Assembly: GCA_036630325.1 (NCBI GenBank)
Contig: CP142731.1
Location: 310,001-374,000 of the forward strand
Reading direction: 5' to 3'
Source of the DNA: Vairimorpha necatrix
Taxonomy: Eukaryota
Length of the DNA stretch: 64,000 nucleotides
Shown: in pieces, positions 1,772 to 56,800 of the stretch
Numbering within the stretch: position 1 is the first letter of the stretch
Layout: each line of letters opens with the position of its first letter
The notes under the pieces: generated by a model
What the model was told of the DNA's origin: nothing
Databases searched by the model: none
What the model saw: only the letters and a program-made list of their open reading frames with translations
Program-made: the position numbers and the translations under genes

Positions 1772-1849
1772 TAAAATAAAAAATTCATAATTTTTTTTCT
1801 ATATATTACTATTAATACATATTCTAAAATTTATTTAACTAAAAAAGTA

Positions 1850-1967
1850 ATTACGGCCATATCTACTGTAAAGCACCGGAACTCGTCAGCTCTCCGAAGT
1901 TAAGCCAGTAAGAGCCCCGTGAGTACTGAGATGGGAGACCGCTCGGAAAAGCAGGGTGCTGTAATTT
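1850..1967 (+). rRNA. 5S rRNA: 5S rRNA
   Basis: ATTACGGCCATATCTAC...GAAGTTAAGC...AGTACT..GATGGGAGACC...GTGCTGTAAT followed by a T-run. The 5' and 3' ends are complementary, and it is near-identical to the copy at 7841. Confidence 0.95.
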
Positions 1968-5757: not shown

Positions 5758-7840
5758 AAAATACTTGTAAATGGGTATAACACGAAAAAAATTAACAAAA
5801 ATTCCTATAGAATAAAATTCTTAGGCAAGATTAATCAGCGCCCCATATATACATGCAATATATTTCTGCGCGTCCTATGTAAGGCACAATTTCCATGAAA
5901 ATCCGGCATCAATAACCCCTTGACGAGGCATTGTAGATATATCATATATCAATTTAGGCTATTAAGCAGTTTCAGGCAAACGAGCAGAAACCAAAGTTGC
6001 GAATGTGTTATATCAAAAAGCAGATAATTGTTTATTAAATGAGGATACCGTCATTTACTCTGAATTTTTTGCTAAATTTATTTAGAATAATTGCGGACAA
6101 TTCCGGGTGTATACCAAAAAAGTACTATTTACAGATTATTATAGATTCCACAATTCAAAAGTTTATTATAAACTCTGATAGTTAGGAATGAATTGTATAT
6201 TATTACATTCGTAATCGTCTCAAAAAAATACAGCAGTTGATTTTTTTTAATGATTAAAGCAAGCCTCACTTCTATTTATGATTCCTATACTATTAAAAAT
6301 GATCTTGTACGGATACTCGAAAACAATAGTAGTCTGGTATGTGAAAGATTTTTTGAGCACGTGGAAGAATGAATCAAAGTAAAGGAAGAAAAGTGTCTTT
6401 TTGTAATATTTAATTAAATTAAATTTAATTTTAAAGCACAAAATATTGCAGTAATTAATTTATAACAAATGTAAAATATAAAAATCAAACAACGATATAT
6501 AAAAAGCGAAAACCACGCAATAAAAAGAAATAAATAAATTAAATATTTTTATAAATATTGCGTTTTCCAAGGAAAGATCTTTATATTTGTTTTATATGTC
6601 TGATAAATGTATTTTTATCACAATTTAATGTCGCAGAATCTACTAAAAAAAATATTTGTTTCCAAACATTAATATGGATATTCCATTTATTTTTTAGTAG
6701 CGGGGAATTCCATTTCGGCCAATGGCATACGCTTTTTATTAAAGATTTTTTTGTTATTTTTATCATAAATTATATATAATTAATAGTGTAATTGAATTAT
6801 TTTTGTTGGAAATAGCAGATGAGTCTGGATGAAATTGCATATTTAAGAACTTTTTCTTTTATATTTAATTCTGAAACACTGATTAGTGATAGCCATGTTT
6901 GATTGGACCAGCTTGTGATGAAACAGTTTGATGTTTGATAAAGATCAATGATTGATACCTAGAGTTACAACAATTTTTTTAACTTAAGTACATCAACTGT
7001 TAGTCAGACAAATTCGTTTGGAATAAATATTGGGGGGTAAAATTTGTGGATTTGGTTTATTTTATTTTGCTATGACTAAAATGGTTTTTTGTTTCGAAAG
7101 ATAGATTTTGTTCTATTTTTAATTTATAAAAAAGTGGCCGACATTAGGGCGAACGGAAAAATTTTAAAAATGTTCCCGGCTGTCAACGTGTTAAAGAAAA
7201 CAACTACAAAGTAAAAATTATAATTTATAACAAATTTAACAATGTAATAAAGAGTTCAAATAAAAAAGATAAGTATTAAAAGGGCAAACCATAGAGGGTG
7301 TCTAATATTTGAACGGTTGAAAGGCTTGAATATAAGGGCTAAATATTTCAGGTAGATTTTCGTGGTGGGAAAACATTGAAATAACGTATTAAATGTGTAG
7401 ACGTTGTTTAGGTTGTTGCGAATTGTTAAAAATTTGTTTCTACAAAAAGAAGATTATAGTCATAAAACTGCGAGCAAAAAAATATTTTCGAACATAAACA
7501 AGATTAAATATTGATAATTTATCAAAAGAACACGATCTGCCTTAAAGAGTGCATGCCCGTTAGATCTAAAACAAAAAATACTAAAAAAAATAATCTGATA
7601 AAATACTTAATATAAAAAAACCATTTAGAATCTTATATAGTTGCTTTAGTATTGTACTTAACGCAACATGCACGTATAATACATTAATTAATTTTTTCTA
7701 CTTTAAATTTCTAAATTCCGATCTAACGATAAAAATTTTTACAATAATTGACTCGTTTTTTATCGCTATCAGCACTAAGATTTTAATGAATTTTTTTTTC
7801 ATACTTTTTGTTTACATATTATAGAATTACCTTTGTTTCA

Positions 7841-7958
7841 ATTACGGCCATATCTACTGTAAAGCACCGGAACTCGTCAGCTCTCCGAAGTTAAGCCAGT
7901 AAGAGCCCTGTGAGTACTGAGATGGGAGACCGCTCGGAAAAGCAGGGTGCTGTAATTT
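7841..7958 (+). rRNA. 5S rRNA: 5S rRNA (second dispersed copy)
   Basis: Identical to 1850-1967 except T7909 versus C1918. Flanks are unrelated. Confidence 0.95.
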
Positions 7959-10846: not shown

Positions 10847-12606
10847 GGTTGGTGAAAAAGTCCGCCAAAGTGGAAAAGTCCGCCACCGTATTTAAGAAAA
10901 TTTGAAAAAAAATAGCCCTTAAAATAGAATTTCGAAACTAACAAACAGCATCAGGAAGAAACACCATAAACTAAAACTACAAATTTTATAATAATATAAC
11001 ACAAAATATTTAACATTTATACTCTTATTATACAATTCTATGATATTAAAAGACAATATGTTTTTTTTTTCAAAAATTTATTTTTCGTCGAATGTTAAGG
11101 AACCCTCTTAATATGGAAAATGAAAGAAGATTACAAGAACAGAAAGAAAGACCTGTCGAAATAAAATGCATAAAAAAATAAACATATGAAAATATACAAA
11201 GGACATAAATACTATAAGAAATACACCGGGGCTTCAATTATAAGATGGTCTTGCTATTTAAAAAATTGTAAAGGAAGTATACGCATGAATACTACAACAA
11301 ATGAAATATGTGATTATCAAGAAATTAATCATGAAGAATTAAGTAATTCACAAATTAAAATACTATTTGTAAATGAAGATATAAAAAGAGATAGCCTTAC
11401 GAGTAGAAAAACTAAAAACGAAATTGTATGTGCAACAACATCAATGCTCGATGATTCAGAAAGACAGATACTTCCAAGTATACGTAACATAAAGAGAAGA
11501 ATTAGAAATATACAAGATTTAGCTCAAAATTTTAGCTATTCTAATAATTATGATATTCCAAATGAGCTACTAATGACACGTTCTGGGATCAAATTTATAC
11601 AGTATGATAATTATTTTAGTGCGAAAGAAAGAATAATAGCATGCTGGTCTGATAAAAATGTGAACAACGCCAAGAATAAGAAGGTCTTTGCAGTTGATGG
11701 GACATTTTACTCGTCACCTCTAGCCTTTTTTCAACTTTTCGTAGTATTTTTTGTAGATGAATATACTTACATTCCTTTTGCTTATTTTCTGCTGCCAAAT
11801 AAAAAATATGAATCATATGTGGAAGCTTTTAAAATGCTATTTAATTTAGCAAATGTTAAAAAAATGGAATATGATAATAGATGGTGAGTTGAATATACAT
11901 AAGGCACTGAATAGTGTATATCCAGACACCAGAATAAGATTTTGTGTATTTCATTATTCACAGGCGGTTTTCAAAAAATTTAAATCATTGGGATTTTCTA
12001 AATTATACAAGGATGATACAATTTTTAGATTTTATATCAAATGTTTGCTTTGTTCAATGTTCATTATTGAAGAAAAAAAATATATTACATTTAAATATTT
12101 AGTTAGATTAATATGTCGAGATTATAATGGACATGCAATTAAAGAATTCCTCAACTATTATATAACAAATTGGTTAAATAAAGACTTTTTCCGTTATAAC
12201 GATATGAAAGAAAGAATAGAACATGATATACCATTTACAAATAATGGAGCGGAAGGTTTCAATTCTTCATTAAAAAGAGAATTGAAATCACCACATCCAA
12301 GTCTAACTGAGCTTTTAACGTGTTTAAGAAACCGTGATTTTCTAAATGAAATATACAAACATAATAATAAAAGCCAGAAAAACAATATCATAACAAAGAC
12401 AAGAAATTCAAAAATATTACTTAAAATAGAAGATTTAAAAGACAATGACTGTTTGGAAGTTCTTAAAGAAACTATATCCTTATATAACTTTAAAGATGAT
12501 ATTTTACAATAAATTTATTCATTTTGATTTCTCCTTTTAAGGGCTATTTTTTTTCAAATTTTCTTAAATACGGTGGCGGACTTTTCCACTTTGGCGGACT
12601 TTTCCC
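10847..12606 (+). mobile_element. Mutator-like (MULE) DNA transposon
   Basis: Perfect 69-bp TIRs at 10856-10924 and 12535-12603 enclose a transposase. Confidence 0.93.
11113..12512 (+). pseudogene. MULE transposase (FLYWCH-like plus DDE), split by two frameshifts in A-runs
   Basis: Motifs IRWSC...CKG, VDGTF, IIDGE, FCVFHYSQAV and TNNGAEGFNSSLK. Frame changes at A8 (~11171-11178) and A7 (11858-11864). Confidence 0.85.
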
Positions 12607-21912: not shown

Positions 21913-23028
21913 ATGTCTTCTGATGATCATTTAATTTACACAAAAATCAGAGATTTATCATATTCCGGATTATACAACATAAAATGCCATGTATTGACGA
22001 TTTACCCGTGGAAAGAATCTAAAGGGAATGATTTCGTTATGACACTCAAAGTCGCCGACGACCCGAAAGAAAATTTTATATTTGTAAAAATTTTTAATAG
22101 TAAAAAATATGAACATGATTTTTTAATAGGCGACTTTTTAAAAATAATAAAAATACGACATTTTAGTAATAATTTTTATATTTTAGATAAAGAAGGTCAA
22201 ATTTCAAAACTCAATAAAACTAATACTAGTAAAAATGTGGATTTTCCACTTCGAAAAATTGTCGACCTAACCTATTCTGAATATATAAAATTCATAGGAA
22301 TATTAATTTACAAACAAAAAGAGACAGAAAATCTTACAATACTCGGATTTATTGATTACACAATAAATCCGAGTATTAAAAAATCAGAAAATAAAGCATA
22401 TTATGAAAATAATATGATTTTATATGTCAGGGTATGGGACAAATTGGCCAAAAAAGCTTTAAATTTATCAGAAAATTCTGTTTACTGTTTAGTTAACTTG
22501 AAAATCAAGCCAGAAATGAACAGAATCTGCTCTGATCTGTCAGATTGTCCTCTGTCAAGTATTTCAGAGGTATTAGACGAGTCAATTATAAATGAAATTA
22601 AGTCTAGAGGCAGACAGCCTAAAGATAAAATTATTTGCTTTAATGGAGATCTTTACAAGAATAATAAGTTGATATTTATAAAAGACATTAAAGATTCGGG
22701 ATATTATAAAATACAAGTAAAGATATTGAGACATCATCCTTTTAATGGCGAGATTATTAAAATATGCACGCCGTGTGGACTAATAAAAACGAGTAAGAAA
22801 TGCGAATGCGGACTGGAAACTGACGAGGTTTTTGTTGTCAAATATTTGGTAAGAGACGAGAGTGGGGAAATTGTCTTGCTTTGTAAAAATGACATAGCCA
22901 AGGCTATGCTGAGAAGATGTGAAGCGGAGAAGAGGATGGAATTACTTGTTTATTGTGAGTATAGGAATAGTAAAATGTATTATGAAGTAAAAGACATACC
23001 TAAATTAACAAATAAATTCAATACATAA
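21913..23028 (+). CDS. POT1: Multi-OB-fold ssDNA-binding protein, POT1-like
   Basis: N-terminal V...YPWKESKGNDFVMTLKVAD...VKIF resembles POT1 OB1 (SKGxD...DxS). Second OB fold GFIDYT...VRVWD. C-terminal OB with CxxC...CxC zinc ribbon and VRDESG. Confidence 0.65.
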   Translation: MSSDDHLIYTKIRDLSYSGLYNIKCHVLTIYPWKESKGNDFVMTLKVADDPKENFIFVKIFNSKKYEHDFLIGDFLKIIKIRHFSNNFYILDKEGQISKLNKTNTSKNVDFPLRKIVDLTYSEYIKFIGILIYKQKETENLTILGFIDYTINPSIKKSENKAYYENNMILYVRVWDKLAKKALNLSENSVYCLVNLKIKPEMNRICSDLSDCPLSSISEVLDESIINEIKSRGRQPKDKIICFNGDLYKNNKLIFIKDIKDSGYYKIQVKILRHHPFNGEIIKICTPCGLIKTSKKCECGLETDEVFVVKYLVRDESGEIVLLCKNDIAKAMLRRCEAEKRMELLVYCEYRNSKMYYEVKDIPKLTNKFNT

Positions 23029-37015: not shown

Positions 37016-37965
37016 TTTTTTCCTTGCAAGTAAGAGGTAGGGAGAAACCTTACATAGGGACCAGAGGGATTTGGGCGTGATCCTCATCCAACTGGTACTG
37101 TGAGATTATTACTCACTAAAACTCCCTCCATACACTTGCCGGTGCAGCAAGCTCCGCCGTATCCATTGGACTTTATCTCTAGGAGAACGTTTTCCATTTA
37201 TACCTCAAATCGCGTCCAGAGTGACCTCACAGCGGATATACTTAACGGGCATGGTTATCTATAACCCGAGGAGATACATCATCGTACTGACTCAAAGGTC
37301 CCTACAATCATCCGTATTGCACACACGGCTCCTTACACGACCACATCCCCAGCCCGGCGGTTTTATTAGCTGCGTTGACCACCAGTCTCCCACTAGTTTC
37401 GGCCACCATGTTACAGAATCTTGTAGGATAGGGTTTACGAGACCTTCTATTGCCCTACTTCGTCTAGTCTCTTAGTTAGCTCTAGGATCCCACTCTAGAG
37501 TGCACCAGCCATGGGTTCCAACTGGGCCGTACCCATTAGATACTTTTATGTATCATTAAGTCACCAAAGGGCGATGCTGCTTTTTGGCCTTGAGGTGCGT
37601 TTCTACACTAGATGCTAATCCCCCTGTGGCTGGACACACACAAGTTTCATTGAATCAACTTAATGATTATCGTGGACATTTTCATCATCTGAGTTGTTCC
37701 AACTGCATCATAGAAAGTAGAAACAATTTTGGTGCCCCTGGGAATCGAACCCAGCCATTGCTCAATGGAAGCATTACATTCTACCACTGTGCTAAGGGCA
37801 CCTAACAATTTTGGTGCCTTTGGGAATCGAACCCAGCCATTGCTCAATGGAAGCATTGCATTCTACCACTGTGCTAAGGGCACCTAACAATTTTGGTGCC
37901 CCTGGGAATCGAATCCAGCCACTGCTCAATGAAGCATTGATTTCTACCACTGGGCTAAATGCACC
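37016..37965 (-). mobile_element. Full-length tRNA-derived SINE with a trimeric tRNA-Gly-like head
   Basis: Three tRNA-like units, an ~700-bp body that is GC-rich relative to the flanks, an A-tail (T-run 37016-37021), and an 11-bp TSD TTATAAATTAT at 37005-37015 and 37966-37976. Second partial copy at 8658-9080. Confidence 0.88.
37730..37965 (-). ncRNA. Three tandem tRNA-Gly(TCC)-like units (37894-37965, 37812-37884, 37730-37802; 82-bp period)
   Basis: A box TAGCACAGTGGTAG, B box GGTTCGATTCCC, T-arm CTGGG/CCCAG and acceptor GGTGCCC/GGGCACC. The anticodon arm does not pair canonically. Confidence 0.8.
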
Positions 37966-38489: not shown

Positions 38490-38762
38490 TTATTTAGCAT
38501 TTACAATGCTTATCATTCTATTAATAAATATACAACAACAAATTAAAGATACTATGAATATTATTATGTTACTTTTAGTAATTGTAATTTGTTCGCTATT
38601 CCCAATTGTATTTTCTGTATTATTATTATTATTATTATTAGCATCTTCTATTGATATGCCATTATGATCTGAAATTTCTACAGTAAAAGGTACTACTAAA
38701 AAAACGAGATTTGAAAACAAAATAGTCAACAAGTAAAAGATAAAGTTTTTATAAATCTTCAT
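38490..38762 (-). CDS. Small membrane-anchored protein family, paralog 4
   Basis: MKIYKNFIFYLLTILF...TVEISDHN, poly-N spacer, hydrophobic C-terminus. CCCTATATG start. Confidence 0.8.
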   Translation of the reverse strand: MKIYKNFIFYLLTILFSNLVFLVVPFTVEISDHNGISIEDANNNNNNNTENTIGNSEQITITKSNIIIFIVSLICCCIFINRMISIVNAK

Positions 38763-40123
38763 ATAGGGCATAATCTTAAATTAATATATTCAGTATTTAA
38801 ACATTTATGCAATGTTTGAAAATAAATTGAATATCTAAGACCTATAAGAAAATCAGATCACGTGATACACTTGATAATGTTAAAATATTGTTGTTTTCCT
38901 GATCAAAAACTACATAGTATTTATCTCTAAAAAAATAAATAGTTGGTTCGAAAAAACAACAATTTGCTTTTAATTTGAGATATAAGTTGCATAATAACAT
39001 AAAAGAATCTAATATGAAAAAGGCTGCAAAATTTACGCATACATTTTAGTTCTACAGTCTATGGGCCTCGACACAATTTGTAAACCATAGTTAGAGACTA
39101 GTTCATATTTCTACCTTTGGTAACGTTTTATCAAGAAATCGATTCGGTCGTAAAAGATACAAAAACCTAAAATTAAAGTTTGCTCTTTGATCTAAAGGCT
39201 TGATATCAAAATCAGATGCTTTGGTACAGAATATATCTTCATACGCGTATGATTATGTTGTATTGAATGCACTATGTGGTGATTTTCTTTTCTTTTTTTG
39301 TTTGAAACAAAATATATACTTTTAATTAAAAAAAAGTATTTAATTGCTGTTTTTTTATTGATACTAAAGTCCAATTTGTATTTAAATTATAGACATTCCG
39401 TTTAGTGTATATTTTTTTGTTAAAAGGGAAACATCTATAGCTCTATTGCTTTGTTTTTTTAGTAATCATAAAAAAATATACACGTTTTACATTTTAATTT
39501 TAGCAGTCCAATAAATACTAAATATCATTAACACAGAACTTTAGTATTGATTTTTTTACATTTATTTATAAAGTTATCTATAATTTCTCTTTTGTTTTTT
39601 TTTACATGTCTATTATCCTTTAAAAATGAGATTTATGCGCAAGATAAATTTTTTTATTTGATCGGTCAATTTGATCATTCCCGTCCATCTTTTATGTATT
39701 GAAATATATATTTGTTTATTCTCAATATAGTTTTTTACTGTTAATTCTCTTTAAGGTGAAATATTTACAGTATTGATATTTTAAATCGAATAATTGAATA
39801 TTTCATTTTTAACTCAATCTTTTTCGCAATAGTCGAGCTTGAAATTTTTTGTAATTACTTTATTAATATATTCATGCTTTCTAAAGAGATTGGAATTTTA
39901 AATACTATTTAGTTTCGTTCGTTTGTAGTGAAAATTTGTTAGTATTTGACTGGCTAAGAACCAATTTAAGAATATATAAATATAAAGGGAAACAACTAGT
40001 TGCATTATTTTTTTAAATATTAAAATTTGCAAAGTATTTATAAAAAAATATTCATGCTGTGATACGATCTTACAATGCTTAAAATTATAATTTGTTAGTG
40101 AATAATTAAAAATTTTATCTAAA

Positions 40124-40375
40124 TCAGATTGATTCAATCAACAAGACCATTGCCACTACACTAAGAAAAATAATCGTCAAAACTGCAAAAGTAAAAAAAC
40201 ACTTCGTTTTCTCATGCACCTCCTGTGGTTTCGAAGTGTTGCTTTTTGTAAAAACATCTTCTGTTGATATGTCATTATAATCCGATAGTTCTAAAATAAC
40301 AGACTCCGATGACAAGATAGTTTTGGAAAATAGAATAGCTAATAAGTAGGACTCTATATTTGTATTTATGTTCAT
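40124..40375 (-). CDS. Small membrane-anchored protein family, paralog 5 (promoter displaced by the Helitron array)
   Basis: MNINTNIESYLLAILF...ILELSDYN...FFTFAVLTIIFL. The ATG is 1 nt from the Helitron CTAG end. Confidence 0.8.
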   Translation of the reverse strand: MNINTNIESYLLAILFSKTILSSESVILELSDYNDISTEDVFTKSNTSKPQEVHEKTKCFFTFAVLTIIFLSVVAMVLLIESI

Positions 40376-40376
40376 A

Positions 40377-41417
40377 CTAGCGTATGCTTTCCCGTTTTGA
40401 AAACGGGATCTTAATGTTTTGTTTTATAATATGTCCCGCCTCGGTGAATTTTGGAGAGTTTCCATTTTGGGATGATTGAATTTGACAGGGTAAAGACATG
40501 ATTTTTTAAATACTTTTTAGAGACATAGAAGATGTAAAGTTAAGTTAAAAACACAATTTAATCTTACTTAGATAATTTTAGGGCACCCAAAGCTCATTTT
40601 TGACACTTTTATTCTGTTTTTTCTCTGGTTAATATTTTAGTGAATTTTTTCTAGAAGGGTCAAATAAATTCTAAAAAACGATTCTGACGATATTTTGGAA
40701 CTGAGTTTAACAAAAAAACAATAATCAAAATTAAATGTATTAACACATAGTATACACACTTACAATAATCATATCGAAACATTAGATATAAATTTGATGT
40801 TTTTAATACACAATAAGTATGAAATAAGAAGTTTAGATTTTACAAAACCACAAAAAATAGGGGTAAAAAATTAAATAAAATTCTTTTATATATATGACTA
40901 GCGTATGCTTTCCCGTTTTGAAAACGGGATTTAAATGTTTATATTTTGATAATATGTCTTTCATCCTTAAATTTTGTACAGTTTCCATTTGGGGATAATT
41001 GAATTTGACAGATTAGACATGATTTTTAAAAATACTTTTTAGCAACATATAAGAAGTAATGTTGTTTTAAAACATTTAATAATCTCAATGAGATAATTTT
41101 GGGAAGTTCTAAGTTCAATTTTTGACGCTTACATTCATAATAATTATTGGTTAAATATTTTTACAATTTTTCGTAGAAGGGTTAAATAAATTCTAAAAAA
41201 CGATTCTGATGATATTTTGGAACTGAGTTTTCAAAAAATAATAAATAGAATAAAAAAGTATTAATATATAGTATCCGCACATATGATAGTCAAAATCCAT
41301 CATTAGATCTAAATTTGATATTTTTAATACACAATAAGTCTAAAGTTTATAGTGTAGATTTTACAAAACCACAAAAAAGAGGGGTAAAAAATTAAATAAA
41401 ATTCTTTTATATATATA
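40377..41417 (-). mobile_element. Two non-autonomous Helitron units head-to-tail (40377-40897, 40898-41417)
   Basis: Minus strand starts TCATATATATAAAAGAAT (the unit ending at 41417 lacks the C) and ends with hairpin CCCGTTTTCAAAACGGG, 10 nt, then CTAG. Confidence 0.92.
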
Positions 41418-44400
41418 CTAGCGTATGCACACCCGTTCTGAGAACGGGTTGTTTGTGTTTGCATGGGTACATGTTTTAATTTTATCACATTATGTTTATT
41501 CTTTAAAAAGATGGCATAGTTTCTGTACGCTCACGGCGCATTTTACCATCTTTTATCTTGTTTTTGTTGAAAAAAAATGGCATAGTTCTTGTACGCTCAC
41601 GGCGCATTTCTTCATCTATTGCTCTTATGAGCCAATTAGTTCATGTAGAACTACATTTTTGACATTGCCCCTGTTTCCCCCCAACTTGCTCTCAAGTTTT
41701 CACTCTTCTTCACTCTTGACAAAGCTACGTATAATTGACCATGAGAAAATACATCCTCAGGCAAATACACTCCCACTTTGTCAAAAGACTGTCCCTGTGC
41801 TTTATGTATTGTCATCGCATATGACAATACCACAGGAAACTGTCTTCTTTTAAGTACAAACGGAAGAAGAGTGTCACTTGGCATCATGTCTATCTTTGGT
41901 ATAACAGCAAGGGTGCCCCTTCCCCTTCCTGTTATTATTTCACCTAAGATGTAATTATCTTTAAGACCTTTTATCTTCAATCTGGTCCCATTTAATAATC
42001 CATTCTTAGGATCAATATTGCGTAACAACATCACTATTGCCCCTATCTTCAATACTAACTTATGTGGAGGTAGTCCTGATGGCTGTTGCATGTATAAGAA
42101 CTCAAGAGGAAATCTCAGTTGTTCTTCGATATCCTCTGATTCTATAGCATCAGAACTCACATATACCCTAGAAGATCCATTAAGTAGGTTTAACACTTTG
42201 GCATTCAATTCATTTGCATGTTCATTTTTGCTCGTTAAGATAATCTTATCAAACAAAGAATCATCACCTGCTTCAATTTTGATTGTTCCAAAAATGCTAT
42301 CGATTATGTCCCCTTCTTCAAGATATTCTTTGGGTATCTCCACACATCCTTTACTATCTCTAGTACGCCCCTCACCTATATCTAACAACCACTTATTAAA
42401 CTCCAATTGATTATAAGATCTCATATTCGTTTCAAGCTTTAGTACACAGACATGTACCCAAAGTCTTGAACTAATTAATGAGTTCTCGATGATATCATTT
42501 GGAGTACCCTTCATTACAATGGTTGATGTCTGTCTAAAGTCACCACCCAATAATAAAGTCTTCCCTCCAAAGATATCATTATTATTACAGAGTCTTTTAA
42601 GCACCTCATCTATTGCGTTCAATGCATGTTTTGACATCATTGAAACTTCATCTATTAGCAATAAAGAGGCCTTTATTATTTTCTCTGCTTCAGGAGTATT
42701 TCTTTTTAATCTAGATACGCTGGTCTCTGTCAAAGGAACAGGAAGTTTCATACAGCTATGCATTGTTCTTCCATCCTTTAGCAGATCTGCAGCAATACCT
42801 GTGGTTGCCATTTGAATTGAAGATTTCCCATTCTTACTTAGATACTCAATCAGGACATTGTATAAATACGTCTTCCCCGATCCAGCTGGTCCATCTAAAA
42901 AGAATAAATTGCCCTTTTTATCAATATTATCTGTTATTTTATCAAAAGCATCCCTCTGTTTTGCATTTAGAGAGGAGATCATCTGATCTAGATCTTTTCC
43001 ATTATCAGAGATAGTTTTTGCCTTCACGATATAGTTAATCGGCTCATCTAAACCCAGAGCATTTAGACTCCATCCATGAGCATTAACTATATCTTTTAAT
43101 CTACTAATAACTTCGTCTCTACTATTCTGATCTAGATCTTCAGACATATCTCCAAGATACTTATCAAAGAGTTTTTTGGTATTTTTTGGCTTATTAAAAG
43201 CACAAATATATCCAAACAATGCTCTTATTATTGCTGGGGATTCGGTTGCTACTGCCTCATCCAAAGCCCTTTCCCATTCTTTGTCATCTTGAAGAAGTCC
43301 TCTTTCTTCAACCGCTTCTGCAAAAGAACTATAAACTATACCATTTACAGTTCTCAAATCATCATATGATCTAGCCCCCTTTACATTGATCAATAGGACT
43401 CTGAGGCTAAATCTTTCCTTCTCTGTAGGAGATACAGAATAAAGTCTAGTAATTATCTTGCTGTACTTATTCTTTCTCCTTATCCATTCTCCCCTTTTAT
43501 ATGTATAGTGATAGGGTATCTCACTATATGCAAATTGATTTGCCTCTTCATCAACTTCATTCAACTTGAAGTAGGCTAAAAGAGGAGTCTGTCTAAGATC
43601 AGATAATCTAACAGCTTCCTCTTCTTTCCCTTCTTCGAAAGTGATCAAGTGTTCTTGTGGAAGATGCACAGGAAGTCTATGGATCTTATGAGATCTCCCA
43701 TGCATCTTGTATTCCATTAATCTCCAGGTAGCCTCTGGTGCTGAAACATATCTGGAATTCACAAAATGATCAATTTCATTGTTGTCAGTTATTCTCATTT
43801 CTGCACAATCAAATCCCTTGTAAATATACTTGAAAATATACTTAACTGACTTGATAGAAGTACAAACTTCTACATTGATATGACAGTTGTATTTTTCAAG
43901 CAAATAAGCATTATAGGGGACCACGTTAGCATTAGTAACAATGTTTCCCCTTACATTGTACTCGGTCCCTCTTATTCTTCGGTATTCAGGATATCCGTCA
44001 TTATTTATCTTTGTTTCAAAGTTATATTCTTTGGGATATTCTTTCGTGCAGACACCATTTTCCATGCATGGACTTGTCAAGTAACTTAATCCACATGGTC
44101 CATGAATCATATGTTTTGTTACACAGTTGTGTAACATCTCATTGTCCATGGGTGATGGTATTTCTGCACTCACATACTTATCTATTCTTTCTTCATCCCG
44201 AATCTTATCCTTTAACATTATCAATATGTGAGCATGAGGAAGTCCACGTTTTTGGAACTCAATGGAATAGACATGAGCCACAACTTCCCCAAATACTCTT
44301 CCTGACAAAATCTCCTCCATCATGCTTTTTAATTTCAAGTTAAAGACCTTTGCTACCAAATCAGGCCTATCAACTGCAGTTTGTCCCCCAAATAGATTCT

Positions 44401-46534
44401 CCTTTATCTCCTTCCAATTTGGATTGCAAGTCATAGTAATAAAAAGATCGGGCTTGCCGAAATTTCTTACGATAGACATTGCATCGTGGTATCTTTCCCT
44501 CATATTTCTTGGAGATCCCTGGAAGCTTGATGGTAAAATTACAGGCTTAGCATTACTTTCTATTCCATTATTTATATAATCTACTAAGCCTTTGTAAAGA
44601 TCTACCCTCAACTTCTTCTGATTTAACTTTATGAAGTTCAAGTTGTTTGCTTCTACTTGTAGATATGAATCTACAATCCATTGTTGAAACAACTTCCCTC
44701 CATAGAGTAAAGGATTGAACTTATCTTTTCTTATAGATATTTGTGCTACTTTATATTGTAGTAAAGATATCTTCTGTGATTCCCCATGATAAGACTCAAT
44801 CCTCAAATTTGCGTTCCATCCAGCTTCGCCATGTGGATAGAACAAAGTATATGTCATTGGATCTAAATGTGGACTTAAAATATCCAAATGTAAATTATCA
44901 GAACTAAGACCCTTGCTATATACTTTAATGTCCCTTTCAAATGGTGGTTCTCCATTTGGATCAGTAAAAATCATTGCGATTTCATTTGTTGAGGGAGCAT
45001 TATACCTTCTCTGATCCCTTTCTAAATTCTTATTAAAGACCATAGAAATGTCTTTAACTTCTTTTCCCATCTCCTTTTGCTCCTTTATTACTTCAGACAT
45101 ATTCTTGTATGCATTGGAATATGGATTGGCAGATCTTATAAATCCATCTAATTTGCTCATGATATATATATCACAATTTCTATTAGATGGATTCGTCATT
45201 CTTTGGGCATTTGCCATATCACTATCTACTACATATAATTGAGCATACTTCTTTGGTGTATTAGAGTCCATATTATTTACATTATAAGTGTTATGATACA
45301 CTTGACCATGTATTTTAAATACATATGGTCCATTGGATACAGTTTCTATTTGAGCACCAAGAGAAGCAAAAGAAAGAGCAGCATTGTAGGATCTAATATT
45401 GTCTCTGAAGTTTTTTGCATCTTTATTTTTTCCTATATATAAATTCTTAATGTCGTCTGGGAAGTCTCTTGTTCTTTGTAATTTAACTTTCCCAAAATGA
45501 CAGCAGCTTTTGTATAATCCATTACTGCTTGCTTCTCCAGCAAAATGTAATGCACCACAAAAGCCACATTCTTCTTTGAGATCTCCACAATAATGTTCGG
45601 CATGGTTTCTAGTACTGATTCTGCAAGCTACATCTAGAATCTCCGTCAAAGCATCCAAATTAGTGTTATTAATTCTCATGATTGTTTCTTCTGTTTCTTG
45701 GGCCGTTTTGTTTTCGCTAGAGAAACTGAATATAGAATTCCTTTTTTTTGTTTCTCCAGCATTTGTTTTTTTATTTTTAGTGCTATTTACAGATGTCTTG
45801 GCTTCATAGAAAACAACATTGTTGTTTTCAGTATTACTACTTATCTCCTGAGAGATAGTGACGTTTGCTTTGGGTTGCTTACTACAATCATTTTTTGTTT
45901 GATTTTTCGTAAACATAATGGGGGCAAAGAAAAAAAAAAAGTATTTATAGTTTTTAAAATTAAAATTCCATTTTGGGAAAGAAGAAAACAAAAATGAGAA
46001 AATGATTTTTTATAAATAGCTTTGATATTAGTCTAAATATTAATTAATTGAGTTTGTTATTCAGTTGATAAATTTCTAATGTTTGTAAATCAACTTTATT
46101 ATGTTTATTTATTTTGATCATATTGATTTTGATTTTCCATTTCTGGAAGGAAGAATTAAAAAGGAGAAATGTGATTTTTAAAAATTAAGTATATTATTGA
46201 ACCAACATTCAGTGGTAAAGTTAATTCAGAAACAAATATAAATTCAATTAAGTTAATTTCACACATTAGCAACAAATTTTTTAATATTTGTGTCACATTG
46301 TTTTTGTTTTCTTTTTCTAAAAGGAAGAAATTAAAAAGGAGAAAATCATATTTCTAAGAATTTCAAAAATGATTTAGAAATAAAATGTAAATAATGAAAG
46401 TGGTTGAAAATTGTCTATAAAATACAATTCAAGTATTCAAAATCAATTTTAGATCAAAATTAGCAATTTTATTTTTTTACCATTTTTTATATTTTAGGGG
46501 TAAAAAATTAAATAAAATTCTTTTATATATATGA
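41418..46534 (-). mobile_element. Autonomous Helitron (5117 bp)
   Basis: 5' TCATATATAT at 46534. 3' hairpin CCCGTTCTCAGAACGGG plus TGTGCATACGCTAG ending at 41418. Intact RepHel ORF inside. Confidence 0.95.
41651..45916 (-). CDS. Helitron RepHel transposase (zinc finger, HUH Rep, Pif1 helicase), ~1421 aa
   Basis: CGFCGALHF...CCHFG, PDLFITMTCNP, EFQKRGLPHAHIL, KYIFKYIYKG, GPAGSGKT, DEVSM, GDFRQ, TIHKAQGQS and GQLYVALSRV. Likely start ATG 45916 after CCCCC. Confidence 0.97.
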   Translation of the reverse strand: MFTKNQTKNDCSKQPKANVTISQEISSNTENNNVVFYEAKTSVNSTKNKKTNAGETKKRNSIFSFSSENKTAQETEETIMRINNTNLDALTEILDVACRISTRNHAEHYCGDLKEECGFCGALHFAGEASSNGLYKSCCHFGKVKLQRTRDFPDDIKNLYIGKNKDAKNFRDNIRSYNAALSFASLGAQIETVSNGPYVFKIHGQVYHNTYNVNNMDSNTPKKYAQLYVVDSDMANAQRMTNPSNRNCDIYIMSKLDGFIRSANPYSNAYKNMSEVIKEQKEMGKEVKDISMVFNKNLERDQRRYNAPSTNEIAMIFTDPNGEPPFERDIKVYSKGLSSDNLHLDILSPHLDPMTYTLFYPHGEAGWNANLRIESYHGESQKISLLQYKVAQISIRKDKFNPLLYGGKLFQQWIVDSYLQVEANNLNFIKLNQKKLRVDLYKGLVDYINNGIESNAKPVILPSSFQGSPRNMRERYHDAMSIVRNFGKPDLFITMTCNPNWKEIKENLFGGQTAVDRPDLVAKVFNLKLKSMMEEILSGRVFGEVVAHVYSIEFQKRGLPHAHILIMLKDKIRDEERIDKYVSAEIPSPMDNEMLHNCVTKHMIHGPCGLSYLTSPCMENGVCTKEYPKEYNFETKINNDGYPEYRRIRGTEYNVRGNIVTNANVVPYNAYLLEKYNCHINVEVCTSIKSVKYIFKYIYKGFDCAEMRITDNNEIDHFVNSRYVSAPEATWRLMEYKMHGRSHKIHRLPVHLPQEHLITFEEGKEEEAVRLSDLRQTPLLAYFKLNEVDEEANQFAYSEIPYHYTYKRGEWIRRKNKYSKIITRLYSVSPTEKERFSLRVLLINVKGARSYDDLRTVNGIVYSSFAEAVEERGLLQDDKEWERALDEAVATESPAIIRALFGYICAFNKPKNTKKLFDKYLGDMSEDLDQNSRDEVISRLKDIVNAHGWSLNALGLDEPINYIVKAKTISDNGKDLDQMISSLNAKQRDAFDKITDNIDKKGNLFFLDGPAGSGKTYLYNVLIEYLSKNGKSSIQMATTGIAADLLKDGRTMHSCMKLPVPLTETSVSRLKRNTPEAEKIIKASLLLIDEVSMMSKHALNAIDEVLKRLCNNNDIFGGKTLLLGGDFRQTSTIVMKGTPNDIIENSLISSRLWVHVCVLKLETNMRSYNQLEFNKWLLDIGEGRTRDSKGCVEIPKEYLEEGDIIDSIFGTIKIEAGDDSLFDKIILTSKNEHANELNAKVLNLLNGSSRVYVSSDAIESEDIEEQLRFPLEFLYMQQPSGLPPHKLVLKIGAIVMLLRNIDPKNGLLNGTRLKIKGLKDNYILGEIITGRGRGTLAVIPKIDMMPSDTLLPFVLKRRQFPVVLSYAMTIHKAQGQSFDKVGVYLPEDVFSHGQLYVALSRVKKSENLRASWGETGAMSKM

Positions 46535-48095
46535 CTAGCGTATGCTTTCCCGTTTTGAAAACGGGATTTATAGTTTTGTTTTATAATATGTACCTCCTTT
46601 ATCTTTTTGTGAATTTCCATTTTGGGAAGAACGAATTTGAAAAGGAGAAAACATGATTTTGAAAAATACTTTTTAGTAACATATAAGGAGTAAATTTGAT
46701 CTAAAAACATTTAATAATTATAATAAGATAAGTTTGGGAAATTCTAAGCTCAAGTTTTGACACTTATATTCAAAATCCTTATTAGTTAATTGTTTTATGA
46801 ATTTTTGTGGAAGGGTTAAATAAATTCTAAAAAACGATTCTGACGATATTTTGGAACTGAGTTTTACAAAAAATTTATAAAAAACAAAAATGCATTTACA
46901 CATAATATACTTACTTACAATAATCATATCGAAACATTAGATTTAAATTTAATATTTTTAATACACAATAAGTATGAAATAAATAGTTTAGAAATTTCAA
47001 AGTCACAAAAAAGAGGGGCAAAAAATTAAATAAAATTCTTTTATATATATGACTAGCGTATGCTCTCCCGTTTTGAAAACGGGCTTTAATATATTTTGTT
47101 TATTGCATTTACTTCTTCCTTTATTTTTTTTGAGTTTCCAATTTGGAATGAATGAATTTGAAAAGGAGAAAACATGATTTTAAAAAATTCTTTTTAGTGA
47201 CATATAAGGAGTAAAGTTGAGCTAAAAACATTTAATAATTATAATACGATAATTTATGTAACTTCTAAGCTCAAGTTTTGACACTTTTATTCAATTTCTT
47301 CTTTGTTATTTGTTTTTGCAATTTTATCTGGAAGGGTTAAATAAATTCTAAAAAACGATTCTGACAATATTTTGGAACTGAGTTTAACAAAAATAATAAT
47401 CAAAATTAAAATGTATTAACACATAGTATACACACTTACTGTAATCATATCGAAACATTAGATTTAAATTTAATATTTTTAATACACAATAAGTATGAAA
47501 TAAATAGTTTAGAAATTTCAAAGTCACAAAAAAGAGGGGCAAAAAATTAAATAAAATTCTTTTATATATATGACTAGCGTATGCTTTCCCGTTTTGAAAA
47601 CGGGATCGAAATGTTTAGTTTGCTAATATGTCTTATATCCTTAAATTTTGTAAAGTTTCCATTTTGGGATGAATGAATTTAATAAGGAGAAAACATAATT
47701 TTTAAAAATACTTTTTAGTAACATATAAGGAGTAAAGTCGAGCTAAAAACATTTAATAATTATAATGAGATAATTGTGGGAATTTCTAAGCTCAAATATT
47801 GATACTTATATTCAAAATCTTTATTAGTTAATTGTTTTTACAATTTTTCGTGGAAGGGTCAAATAAATTCTAAAAAACGATTCTGACGATATTTTGGAAC
47901 TGAGTTTAACAAAAATAATAATCAAAATTAAAAAGTATTAACTAATAACATACACACTTAGAATAGTCAAATTAAAGCAATAAATCTATATTTGATATTA
48001 TATTAACGTAAAAAGCTCAAACCATATCGTATAGAATTTTTAAAACCACAAAAAAGAGGGGTAAAAAATTAAAAAAAATTATTTTATATATATGA
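46535..48095 (-). mobile_element. Three non-autonomous Helitron units head-to-tail (46535-47052, 47053-47573, 47574-48095)
   Basis: CTAG|TC junctions (plus strand tatatga|ctagcgtatgc) at 46534/5, 47052/3 and 47573/4. Same termini and hairpin in each. Confidence 0.92.
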
Positions 48096-48469
48096 TGATG
48101 GGTCAAGTTAGTTTTATTTTAAAATACTACCCCTTAACATTGTTAAGTTGTTTAATTCTTGAAAATTTTATAATTCCTAAAAGATTAATAAAATATGTGT
48201 CTTTGATTATAAGTACGGTCATTATAGAATTAAAAGAAACTAAATTCATAATGTACAAATTTACAAAATTTTTAAGAGCAAAAATAAAGTTATGTAGTCG
48301 ACGAAATATTACAAAAAGTTGTTAGAATTATTATTAATATTGACTGAGATGTTTTATAATTATATTTAAAAGATCAATCAATGATAGTATTATCATTTTT
48401 ATTCAAATGCTCAAAATAGATTAAAAACCTATCTGTTTCTGTTTTTTAATAATATATAAAATGGCATTA

Positions 48470-49180
48470 AAGAATCGAAATATTTTCTTAGAGAAACAAA
48501 AAAAATACACACTTTAACGAAAATGCAAAGATTGTAGATCTTATGGCCCCCCAATGTGATCGTATGCTTTCATGTGATTACATGATGCACAACGATGCAT
48601 ACATCTGCAGTTCTGTAAGACGTACGGGCTATCTTATGCTAAAAGAATTATCAATCACACAGTCCAGAAATGTGTATCTAACGAGTAGGTTGAGAAAGAG
48701 TAAACAGCTGGTACATTCAAGTATCAAAATAAAGTATAACAAGCCTGATGTAATAATTGAGGATAAAGGAAAGAAAAGATTGTTGTTGAGGTTGAAATCA
48801 CAAGCTTTAACGATATTTATGCTGTAGAAACAGTAATAATTAAAATACGACTTGCTTGCAAATCATGTGGCTTCTTTCAACAAAAAAAATCGAAATTATT
48901 TGTTACGTAGTGAATTGAGATGAATTATCATTATATTTAACGCGCGCATATCAAAAGCTGCGATTAGAATCCAGAACGAAAGTATATACGCAAACAAGAG
49001 TTCTTAAAAAGACTTTAGAAAGCCTAACTCTGTCAATAAGACATGGGCTTTATACTGAACAGGAAGGGGTACTCGAGGACCCAATATGTGGATTTCAGGA
49101 GGAACTCCGAGATCTTTCAGACGAGATTGTGATTGCATCTTGTAAAAAGTAATTAGCAAGTAATATATTATACGATAAAT
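48470..49180 (+). mobile_element. Decayed 3' fragment of the RLE-type non-LTR retrotransposon
   Basis: QCDRMLS.DY and HSSIKIKYNKPD. Colinear with the reverse complement of 50210-50940. Confidence 0.8.
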
Positions 49181-50209: not shown

Positions 50210-51120
50210 ACTTTTTGGGGGTATAATTTATTAATTTACTTACTAATTATTTTTCACAAGCTCTGCTCAATTTCTTCTGGTAGTTTTCGGAGTTTCTCCT
50301 GAAATTTACATATTTGGTCCTCGGACACGCCTTCCTGTTCAGTATCAAGCCCATGTTCGACTGACATAGTTAGGCTTTCTAAAGTCTTTACAAGGCCTCT
50401 TGTTTGCATACATGCTTCCGTTCTAGATTTTAATCGCAGCTCTTTGATACGCGCGCGTTATATAATACTAATACATCCCAATTCATTACGTAATAAATAA
50501 TTTTAGTTTGAATTTGTAGAAAGAAGCCACATGATTTGCAAGCAAGTCATGTTATGAGCTTTTCTGTTTATACCGCATGAAGGTTGTTAAAGCTTGTGAT
50601 TTCAACCTCAACAACGATATCTTCTTTCCTCAACTTGTCCAGAATTAGTATATCAGGCTTGTTATACTTTATTTTGATACTTGAATGTATCCTAGTGTCA
50701 ACTCTTATTTCAACATACAGATTAGCTACACATTCCTGGATTGAATAATTTCTAATTCTTTTAGCATGGGATAATACATACGCCTTACATAACTGCAGGT
50801 GTATGCATCGCAGTGCCTCATTGTGCTGTCTCATGGAATCATGTGAAAGCATACGATCACATTGAGTGGCCATATGATATACTGTCTTTGCATGTTCATG
50901 ACAATGTGGGTTTTTTTGTTTTTCTAAGAATATGTTTCGGTCCTGTAGTACACATAAATTGCCTTCCTTTCTTTGGCTTATATTTCCTTTTGTAAGCCAC
51001 ATAGCAGCCTGATTTATATCAATGAGTATTTCGTCTTGTGGTCTAAATGGCTTTGAGTGTTTTATTTTTGTTTTTATATCGCTATAAAGAGCTTTGATTT
51101 GGGTCTCTATCAATGTTTTA
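50210..51120 (-). mobile_element. 5'-truncated RLE-type non-LTR retrotransposon
   Basis: ORF 50568-51113 has WLTKGNI, LQDRNIF, RQHNEALRCIH, IRVDTRI and KYNKPDILILD..VVEV, with a premature stop. 3' UTR shared with 9910-9960. Confidence 0.88.
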
Positions 51121-51978: not shown

Positions 51979-52212
51979 TTAATTTTTATTTATAGCTAAA
52001 AACCAAGTAATAAGAACACAAACAAATGAATAAAAAATGAAAAAAACGACGAACCTAGCAAAATCTTTGCATCTATTGCCTGTGATATTAGTATCTTCTC
52101 CCAATAACGCAACAGAATCTTCTATTTGTACGGTATAAATTGCTGTTTTTATGATTTGGTTTAATAGTATGATGGTCAGTAAGCAATGCAATAAATTTCT
52201 ATGAATATTCAT
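51979..52212 (-). CDS. Small membrane-anchored protein family, paralog 6
   Basis: MNIHRNLLHCLLTIILL...YTVQIED...FVVFFIFYSFVCVLI. CCCATATG start. Confidence 0.8.
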   Translation of the reverse strand: MNIHRNLLHCLLTIILLNQIIKTAIYTVQIEDSVALLGEDTNITGNRCKDFARFVVFFIFYSFVCVLITWFLAINKN

Positions 52213-55149: not shown

Positions 55150-55623
55150 ATGTCTGATTTTTATTCTTTGTCAGCTCTCGACACTTCCAAATCATTAGTA
55201 GATTTATCATCTTACAAAGACAATCTTCTCATTATCTCAAATGTCGCCAGTGATTGTGGCCTCACCAAGTCAAATTACACTTCTTTCAAGTTACTTATAG
55301 ATGAATATTACGATAAAGGACTCCGTATTCTTCTATTCCCTTGTTCTCAGTTTCTAAACCAAGAATCTGGAGATATAGAAAGTATTAAAAAGAGAGTCGA
55401 GGAGATTTCGCCCAAATTAATTTTATTTGATAAAATTGATGTTATGGGATCTAAACAAGATCCCATTTTTAAGTATTTGAGGAGTAATGAGCCGTCGGGA
55501 TGGTTTAATTTTGTAAAGTGGAATTTTATGAAGTGGGTTGTTAAAGACGGGAAAGTGTTGAAGAGATTTGGGCCTACAGAAATTATAAAGAGTGAAGATA
55601 TTAGTCAATATTTTAGTAAATAA
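55150..55623 (+). CDS. GPX: Glutathione peroxidase family protein (Cys-type)
   Basis: NVASDCGLT, FPCSQFLNQE, LFDKIDVMG..QDPIFKYL and KWNFMKW. Confidence 0.93.
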   Translation: MSDFYSLSALDTSKSLVDLSSYKDNLLIISNVASDCGLTKSNYTSFKLLIDEYYDKGLRILLFPCSQFLNQESGDIESIKKRVEEISPKLILFDKIDVMGSKQDPIFKYLRSNEPSGWFNFVKWNFMKWVVKDGKVLKRFGPTEIIKSEDISQYFSK

Positions 55624-56215
55624 ATAATTGACATTACAGTCTTCTTAATCTTTATTAAATTCGTTTTTTTAAGTTTATTTACACTATATAATCTTTACAT
55701 TTCTTTCAAATTGCCCGGTGAGTAAATACAACTCCAATTTATATTGCTTTTTTTCATAACACTATCAAAGTGAAATTGATTAGCTTATAAATTTCTAGAA
55801 GTAGATGTAATCTTTAAGTTTTGTTCCATAGTATATTGACTAAACATGACACAAAACAATCTGGGCCTCTAAATTATCATCTTTTTACATTTTAAAAATG
55901 TGTGTTGTCGAGTTAGTCCAGAGACAAGAATCAGTGCTTTTTAAACACAAGATATATTTTTGATTTTTTTTTTTTCTCTTTATGCCCTTCTGGGGGCAAT
56001 TTGCTTAAATGCATTATACCAAAATACAGTATTCTGAAGAGGGGCGAAATAAATCAAAATATTTATAAGACACATATTTCCAAGAAAGAAGTTTCTATTT
56101 ATTTATAAACATTAAATGTGTCTTGATCATATCTATAATATTCTCCTTTGTTTTGATCATATCTATTATATTTCTCATAGTATTTTACAATATTGATTCC
56201 TTTTTTATACACCCC

Positions 56216-56800
56216 ATGTCTCTAGAGGGATCAAATTTCTATAAATTATCTGCCATAGACTACAAAGACAATCTCATTGACTTCTCCCAGTACAAAGGTA
56301 AAATGTTACTTATCACTAATATGGCCTCTACTTGCGGCCTGGCCAAGAGTAATCTTTCAGTCTTGGCTGATATTCTGACTCTTTACAGGGAGTTCGGCCT
56401 CGAGATCTTGATTTTCCCCTGTCTCCAGTACGCCAAGGATGACACAGACATCCTTAAAAAGATGTATGAGATAATAATCGACTACTCTGATAAATTCACA
56501 GTCTTCAGTGACATAAACTTGATAGGAAAAGATATTCATCCTGTGTATAAGCACATTATAAAGTACAGTAAGGGATTTGTAGGGAGATTTATGAAGTGGA
56601 ACTTCGCGAAATTTATTATAAATGAGAAGGGAGTAATTGTCAAGATGTTTGAGCCTGGAGACCGAATAGAAGTGAACGAGAAGATATTTAAGAAATTATT
56701 GAAGAATAAGAAAGTGCAGATTGAAGAAAGAGAGGTATTAAAATATGAGACAGATCCATATGATTTAGAGAACAGTAGTGACGAGGAATTATTTTATTAA
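56216..56800 (+). CDS. Second, divergent glutathione peroxidase family protein with an acidic C-terminal tail
   Basis: NMASTCGL, FPCLQY, HPVYK and KWNFAKF. Likely start is ATG 56216 after CCCC. Confidence 0.88.
   Translation: MSLEGSNFYKLSAIDYKDNLIDFSQYKGKMLLITNMASTCGLAKSNLSVLADILTLYREFGLEILIFPCLQYAKDDTDILKKMYEIIIDYSDKFTVFSDINLIGKDIHPVYKHIIKYSKGFVGRFMKWNFAKFIINEKGVIVKMFEPGDRIEVNEKIFKKLLKNKKVQIEEREVLKYETDPYDLENSSDEELFY

Follow-up and report, generated by a model that had tools for sequence, protein, structure and literature searches.

How does an intact autonomous Helitron come to lie in the middle of a row of short, mutually diverged relatives, all joined head to tail without a single base between them? 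The question is raised by a locus of the microsporidian Vairimorpha necatrix at positions 40377 to 48095 of a 64,000-nucleotide (nt) window (contig CP142731.1 of assembly GCA_036630325.1, positions 310,001 to 374,000 of the forward strand; all coordinates below are those of the window). An earlier note had described this block as six spacerless elements, one autonomous and five of about 520 bp, and had doubted that they could stem from one round of rolling-circle amplification, proposing instead either repeated targeting of resident Helitron ends or movement of a helper-plus-satellite train. The answer that we lean towards, as somewhat probable, is that members of one canonical Helraiser-type Helitron family inserted serially at a single spot, each exactly against the end of a resident copy, and that local conversion followed.

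Read on the minus strand from 48095 to 40377 and extracted by script, the locus has the order U5-U4-U3-autonomous-U2-U1 with no base between elements, which matches the earlier description to the base. The six elements are as follows.

47574..48095, minus strand: U5, non-autonomous unit, 522 bp; 5' TC at 48095-48094, 3' CTAG at 47577-47574, hairpin at about 47587-47605 (nhmmer E 7.9e-149)
47053..47573, minus strand: U4, non-autonomous unit, 521 bp; hairpin at about 47067-47083 with a 7-bp stem, -8.0 kcal/mol
46535..47052, minus strand: U3, non-autonomous unit, 518 bp; hairpin at about 46548-46566
41418..46534, minus strand: autonomous Helitron, 5,117 bp; 5' TC, 3' CTAG, hairpin at about 41431-41449, -8.6 kcal/mol
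40898..41417, minus strand: U2, non-autonomous unit, 520 bp; 5' end TA, the C of TC missing; hairpin at about 40911-40929
40377..40897, minus strand: U1, non-autonomous unit, 521 bp; 3' CTAG at 40380-40377, hairpin at 40390-40408, -9.3 kcal/mol, z -5.69

None of the five internal joints contains a spacer base. Four of them read CTAG|TC and the fifth, between the autonomous element and U2 at 41417/8, reads CTAG|TA, U2 being without the C of its 5' TC; both forms had been described before and both are confirmed. The host contributes an A at 48096 (...CCATCA|) before the TC of U5 and a T at 40376 (|TATGAA...) after the CTAG of U1. The flanks CCATCA and TATGAA show no target-site duplication and the whole block occupies one A|T site, again as had been claimed, while the internal joints are G|T. 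The 5' TC is present in five of the six elements and the 3' CTAG in all six, each time inside an exact CATACGCTAG. Allowing up to one mismatch, CATACGCTAG matches the 64-kb window six times, always exactly, on the minus strand and at the six 3' ends (chance expectation 0.85; six matches reached in 0 of 100 shuffles). For TCATATATATAAAAG, up to two mismatches give seven matches in the window, six of which are the element 5' ends (four exact, U5 with one mismatch and U2 with two in the ungapped register). The seventh, at 22670-22684 on the plus strand with two mismatches, was set aside as being at chance level, given an expectation of 1.93 and seven matches reached in 2 of 100 shuffles.

A profile of the five units run against the window with nhmmer (E<=10) returned eight matches, comprising the five full-length units (E 4e-144 to 2.5e-151) and three partial matches on the ends and 5' region of the autonomous element. 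Neither nhmmer nor blastn found a further unit copy outside 40377-48095 in the window, and tblastn found no second copy there of RepHel, the transposase of the autonomous element. The window holds 6,824 A|T sites outside the array, and all five joints are nonetheless exact; because so many other sites were on offer, chance is excluded for even one such placement.

What the units have in common with the autonomous element is limited to some 39 nt at the 5' end, the 3'-terminal 31 nt and a module of about 60 nt. The first 37-40 nt of the units match those of the autonomous element at 40/40 positions in U1, 37/37 in U2, 38/39 in both U3 and U4, and 37/39 in U5, while the last 31 nt match at 84-87%. 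Each 3' end carries a hairpin with a stem of 7-8 bp and a 3-nt loop, ending 13-14 nt before the 3' end. It was folded for three of the six ends (U4, the autonomous element and U1; -8.0 to -9.3 kcal/mol, z -3.9 to -5.7), and the other three ends have the same hairpin sequence as U1. The first 40 or so nucleotides and the hairpin end had been named in the earlier note as shared features, and with 37-40 nt matched and a hairpin plus CTAG at all six ends this stands. Between units and autonomous element the stem differs by a paired change of T:A to C:G, as a functional hairpin stem would show. The module, found by repeat search and alignment, has the consensus ...AAAATCATGTTTTCTCCTTTT.AAATTC.TTC.TCCCAAAATGGAAA... 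and occurs once in each unit near the 3' end (about 75 nt each) and in three copies in front of the RepHel start codon. The earlier note does not mention it; its role could be that of a promoter or of a site bound by the transposase.

46290-46365, 46115-46190 and 45945-46020 (all approximate), minus strand: the module in the autonomous element, by repeat search, blastn and alignment
47637-47712, minus strand: the module in U5
47116-47191, minus strand: the module in U4
46595-46670, minus strand: the module in U3
40970-41045, minus strand: the module in U2
40445-40520, minus strand: the module in U1

The five units thus shaped are non-autonomous relatives of the autonomous element. Their uniform length of 518-522 bp, together with the 1,421-codon open reading frame (ORF) of their larger neighbour, which is open throughout, bears out the earlier division into five units of about 520 bp and one intact autonomous element. 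The main parts of the latter are these.

41654..45916, minus strand: RepHel coding sequence (P0001), 1,421 codons, 4,263 nt; stop codon at 41651-41653
45917..46534, minus strand: 5' non-coding region, 618 nt, with the 39-40-nt common terminus and the three modules of about 60 nt
41493..41620, minus strand: two 62-nt direct repeats, 81% identical and 66 nt apart start to start, by repeat search and blastn

The direct repeats have a G+C-rich core and lie between the RepHel stop codon and the terminal hairpin. The RepHel ORF contains neither stop nor frameshift. Pfam places Helitron_like_N at residues 392-566 (4.3e-62), PIF1 at 983-1188 (3.2e-55) and Pif1_2B at 1278-1318, and there is no endonuclease family among the 11 Pfam matches. 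Residues 106-1417 align to the Helraiser transposase 7LCC with 1228 bits, conserving GLPHAHIL, SVKY(I/L)FKYIYKG and the Walker A sequence GPAGSGKT. In this alignment the HUH (HxH), two-tyrosine (Y..KY..K) and Walker A motifs are all intact, and we take the first two to be catalytic by analogy with Helraiser, for which the mutants Y727F/Y731F and K1068Q are named in PMC5876387.

Among 8,000 scored candidates, 2,669 are related to RepHel at E<=0.001, the best full-length relatives being at most 54% identical. The best named match is a fragment of 805 amino acids (aa) from Papilio xuthus (P0058), 64% identical over 780 residues (P0001 residues 634-1410); the likeness could reflect horizontal transfer between host and parasite, or microsporidian DNA in an insect assembly.

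By its sequence features the autonomous element classifies as a canonical Helitron (Helitron1), because it has TC...CTAG ends, a 3' hairpin, an A|T site, a RepHel without endonuclease and no terminal inverted repeat, none of the 10 inverted pairs reported by the repeat search being terminal. Helitron2 elements and Helentrons are characterised by asymmetric terminal inverted repeats and, in Helentrons, by an endonuclease domain (PMC5148889). Assignment to either was rejected, given the absence of terminal inverted repeats and of an endonuclease domain, and the TC...CTAG ends in an A|T site. An Rfam scan of the array at E<=1 gave only a sub-threshold match to a bacterial small RNA inside the RepHel coding sequence, which at 25.8 bits against a gathering threshold of 55.6 was taken as chance, and no tRNA genes were found within the array.

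The units are clearly diverged from one another, as the earlier note had said, with pairwise identities of 78.2-87.6% over all 10 pairs. The closest pair, U4/U3 (87.6%), are neighbours; the other neighbours U2/U1 (80.0%) and U5/U4 (80.8%) stand beside the non-neighbours U5/U2 (82.4%) and U4/U1 (82.2%). Of 526 columns in the five-unit alignment 203 vary, and they are unevenly spread: only 7 of the 71 columns that make up the first 40 and last 31 vary, against 196 of 455 elsewhere, and so few were obtained in 0 of 20,000 permutations. The longest invariant run, of 26 columns (reached in 10 of 20,000 permutations), lies inside a second conserved region, a central block of about 58 nt at columns 188-245 or so, where the units are 96-97% identical in surroundings of 60-80%.

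47851-47912, minus strand: central block in U5
47326-47390, minus strand: central block in U4
46808-46869, minus strand: central block in U3
41176-41230, minus strand: central block in U2
40654-40713, minus strand: central block in U1

Neither the autonomous element nor the remainder of the window contains this block, Rfam has no match to it, and no secondary structure was detected in it or in the 5' end (z +1.25, +0.35, +0.42 and -0.68). Such uneven conservation is expected of units descending from copies selected for mobilisability, rather than of neutral decay in place.

The units are also mosaic. The 42 informative sites divide among the groupings U4+U3 (8), U5+U2 (9), U2+U1 (9), U4+U1 (7) and others (9), and the groupings cluster by region. 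Building a unit phylogeny against array position, as the earlier note had suggested, proved unworkable as posed, because sites that conflict by region leave no single tree on which such a comparison would be meaningful. The first 132 nt of U4 and U3 are identical, and the identity extends to a 144-nt tract shared by the U5/U4 and U4/U3 joints, with 12 nt before the joint and 132 nt after it (47585-47442 and 47064-46921, minus strand). This looks like a recent conversion or template switch beginning beside a Helitron joint, and it shows that neighbours also exchanged sequence in place. Satellite DNA was considered and ruled out, with only five monomers, in runs of three and two, 78-88% identical and each with complete transposon ends.

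Two observations lead from this anatomy to an order of events. Because the autonomous element shares only its ends and the module of about 60 nt with the units, it is not a unit variant, and a separate event must therefore have set it exactly between two unit termini. Conserved ends and an intact 4.3-kb ORF, beside unit differences of 12-22%, argue moreover that most of the divergence predates arrival, and therefore suggest several insertions from diverged source lineages; we infer that it cannot have accumulated wholly in place since a common birth of the units. At least one insertion exactly beside an existing end is thus required, and there were probably several. On the serial reading, the first element would have inserted at the host A|T, and later copies, drawn from diverged non-autonomous lineages and from the autonomous lineage, would have been joined exactly to a resident terminus. 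This could happen by either of two routes. In route (a), the host A and the resident 5' T would remake an A|T target, so that a new copy would enter at the 5' edge with its CTAG abutting the older TC. In route (b), RepHel would nick a resident terminus or an internal CTAG|TC joint, whose sequence is that of the joint of the circular intermediate, and the incoming strand would be transferred there. Once the array was assembled, neighbouring units would have swapped sequence, as in the 144-nt tract. The sequence shows the anatomy, the intact enzyme, the divergence of units with conserved ends, the mosaicism and the need for one precise insertion or more; the number and order of the insertions, the route that applies and any present-day activity are matters that we infer.

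Several points weigh against serial insertion. Neither the units nor the autonomous element have a second copy in the window, and the independent origin of each unit is deduced from the conservation pattern. Recombination or duplication in place has certainly acted, to judge by the regionally conflicting sites and the 132-nt identity of U4 and U3, and could explain more of the structure than we have assumed. Each route has a cost, since route (a) demands that U3, U4 and U5 all be later than a still-intact autonomous copy and route (b) requires a non-canonical G|T target. The conserved termini could themselves be conversion tracts begun by RepHel nicking at the joints. Finally, the joint between the autonomous element and U2 is imperfect, with one C missing. 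A nested insertion at an A|T inside TCATAT... was considered for this joint and rejected, the extra TCA that it predicts at the U3/autonomous joint being absent.

The alternative that makes most use of local exchange is tandem duplication in place, whether by unequal crossing-over, slippage or an old rolling-circle concatemer, with divergence and exchange in situ and the autonomous element arriving later at an internal joint. It would account for the uniform unit length, for the mosaic relationships and U4/U3 identity as products of local recombination, and for the closest pair being neighbours, and Xenopus commonly has Helitron-derived arrays of 2-7 repeats, 43 being reported for Xenopus laevis (PMC12001565). 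We nevertheless consider it unlikely: neutral decay predicts neither the near-perfect ends nor the conserved central block, neighbours other than U4/U3 are not systematically closer than non-neighbours, and the autonomous copy would still need one precise end-adjacent insertion, so that terminus targeting stays. An old concatemer is to be distinguished from the classical reading of perfect head-to-tail joints, given for bat and plant genomes (PMC5876387, PMC2267711), in which one circular template is copied several times and integrated as a multimer. That reading calls for near-identical, star-like copies of one template, whereas the units here are mosaic and 12-22% different, and a coding-intact 5.1-kb element sharing little beyond its ends sits in mid-array. 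These findings contradict a single concatemer, which is very improbable, and they exclude one rolling-circle round, so that the earlier doubt was well placed.

The array, or sub-runs of it, might instead have been built elsewhere and moved as one composite transposon, from the 5' end of U5 to the 3' end of U1, with the internal 3' ends read through. The TC...CTAG outline of the whole block in one A|T site is compatible with this, and bypass of an end is an accepted property of Helitrons (background in PMC5148889). Such a train would have had to bypass five internal 3' ends, all with intact hairpin and CTAG, in one event; the single A|T site is equally expected from serial insertion at the 5' edge, and the window contains no second copy of the train, which together make this origin rather improbable. 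A mis-join or repeat expansion in the assembly deserves mention since the U3/autonomous and U2/U1 joints share 36 nt upstream and 40 nt downstream, and the U5/U4 and U4/U3 joints share 12 + 132 nt. Each unit differs from every other by at least 12%, however, so that reads longer than about 150 nt would place each of them, and the TCP-1-bearing contig, at 1,281,651 bases, suggests a long-read assembly; we give an artefact hardly any credence.

Serial insertion has a close precedent. Du et al. (2008, BMC Genomics 9:51) described two different maize Helitrons joined CTAG|TC, read them as consecutive insertions and stated both routes, in which the target is either the G/T beside a resident 3' end or an A/T that the host A forms with the resident 5' T (PMC2267711). 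In both species unlike Helitrons are joined CTAG|TC without a host base. The maize elements are two gene-carrying non-autonomous ones, whereas here there are six, including an intact autonomous copy, and the non-autonomous members belong to one diverged 520-bp family. Presence or absence in maize inbred lines supported two independent insertions, with their order left open (PMC2267711), whereas the present array is known from one sequence.

The Helraiser/Helibat system of Myotis lucifugus offers the nearest mechanistic likeness, sharing the transposase architecture and the TC...CTAG ends. Helraiser transposase cuts the plus strand of the RTS-LTS joint exactly at the junction, and its authors consider it a possible interpretation that circle replication prefers, as its substrates, double-stranded circles whose joint is precise (PMC5876387). 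In the array, all internal joints take the form of the circle joint that Helraiser cleaves, and by analogy they may be nicked and may receive transferred strands. Perfect head-to-tail joints are reported in the bat genome (cited in PMC5876387 and PMC2267711), where tandem repetition of a single element was suggested (PMC2267711). The host here is, by contrast, a microsporidian, and the element is known from its sequence alone.

Xiong, Dooner and Du (2016, Plant J) are said to have taken head-to-tail Helitron arrays of plant centromeres as a trace of rolling-circle replication. Those arrays reportedly run to hundreds of repeats, in which the copies are truncated and decayed and numerous 5' ends often go with a single 3' end, unlike the six heterogeneous elements here, which are few and all complete at both ends. 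Tandem Helitron insertions are cited for bat, Drosophila, rice, maize and plant centromeres, and in the fungus Metarhizium acridum three copies lie in tandem, for which two readings were likewise offered (PMC5148889). The latter are a fungal-lineage parallel, although they are Helitron2-type elements with terminal inverted repeats (PMC5148889) and those described here are canonical Helitron1. In their available parts, two microsporidian genome papers give Helitrons as repeat-annotation totals only, and for Nosema bombycis three copies of a Lep1-like non-autonomous Helitron are described, the Lep1 elements of Lepidoptera and N. bombycis being 190-445 bp long. Among the papers listed by our literature searches, none gave an account of Helitron arrays in microsporidia.

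Around the array genes are sparse, with nothing but short ORFs on both sides. Uninterrupted ORFs of the window code for TCP-1 delta, Sec1, a P-type ATPase and a proteasome subunit. The best named matches of TCP-1 are from Nosema granulosis (65%), N. bombycis (60%), and then Ordospora and Encephalitozoon (53-56%), which places the host among microsporidia of the Nosema/Vairimorpha group. One small ORF, 40124-40375, begins 1 nt downstream of the 3' end of the array, which has therefore replaced whatever lay upstream of it. It is one of three such ORFs of 77-93 aa (with 38490-38771 and 51979-52212, all on the minus strand), 25-28% identical and alike in layout, both termini being hydrophobic and the middle acidic. 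Two tRNA-Met (CAT) genes stand in tandem, 9 nt apart, at a distance of some 2.5 kb from the array (37730-37802 and 37812-37884, minus strand), the second alone reaching the Rfam gathering score. At the upstream side, the ORF fragments 48543-48827 (plus strand) and 50568-51113 (minus strand) match each other at 41% identity over 91 residues, and Pfam recognises neither. Another repeated element probably left them behind, conceivably as pieces of the C-terminus of a non-LTR retrotransposon. Further away, a gypsy-type pol ORF (1-1743, minus strand; RVT_1, RNase H and zinc knuckle) runs off the start of the window, with a 5S rRNA gene (1849-1967, plus strand) about 100 nt from it and a second 6 kb on (7840-7958, plus strand). 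At 11853-12512 on the plus strand there is a match to MULE transposase that, with 22.7 bits, stays below the cut-off of 27.6, and two tandem glutathione peroxidase paralogues lie at 55150-55623 and 56123-56800, also on the plus strand.

Heterogeneous head-to-tail Helitrons formed by consecutive insertion have been known since the maize work of 2008; the array adds a case to a known phenomenon and reveals no new kind of element or mechanism. Its particular feature is that six complete elements, an intact helper in mid-array and diverged members of one short family occur together. It also documents a canonical Helraiser-type autonomous Helitron in a microsporidian. Pile-ups of this kind, heterogeneous and precise to the base, show directly that resident copies can attract Helitron integration to their ends. 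Terminus-directed integration has been noted since 2008 and, to our knowledge, never tested biochemically. The array is small and fully resolved, and with its apparently functional transposase gene and five complete substrates it provides natural donor and target sequences for such an assay. A bolder proposal, which we put forward tentatively and regard as doubtful, is that resident Helitron ends serve as homing sites, RepHel nicking a terminus or a CTAG|TC joint and transferring incoming copies there. Were this so, the 144-nt U4/U3 conversion tract, with its start 12 nt ahead of a joint, would have arisen as a side effect of nicking, and every internal joint would be a ready origin from which units could be released anew, singly or in short trains. 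The helper and the short parasitic elements would then gather in a safe haven of their own making, sparing the genes of a compact parasite genome.

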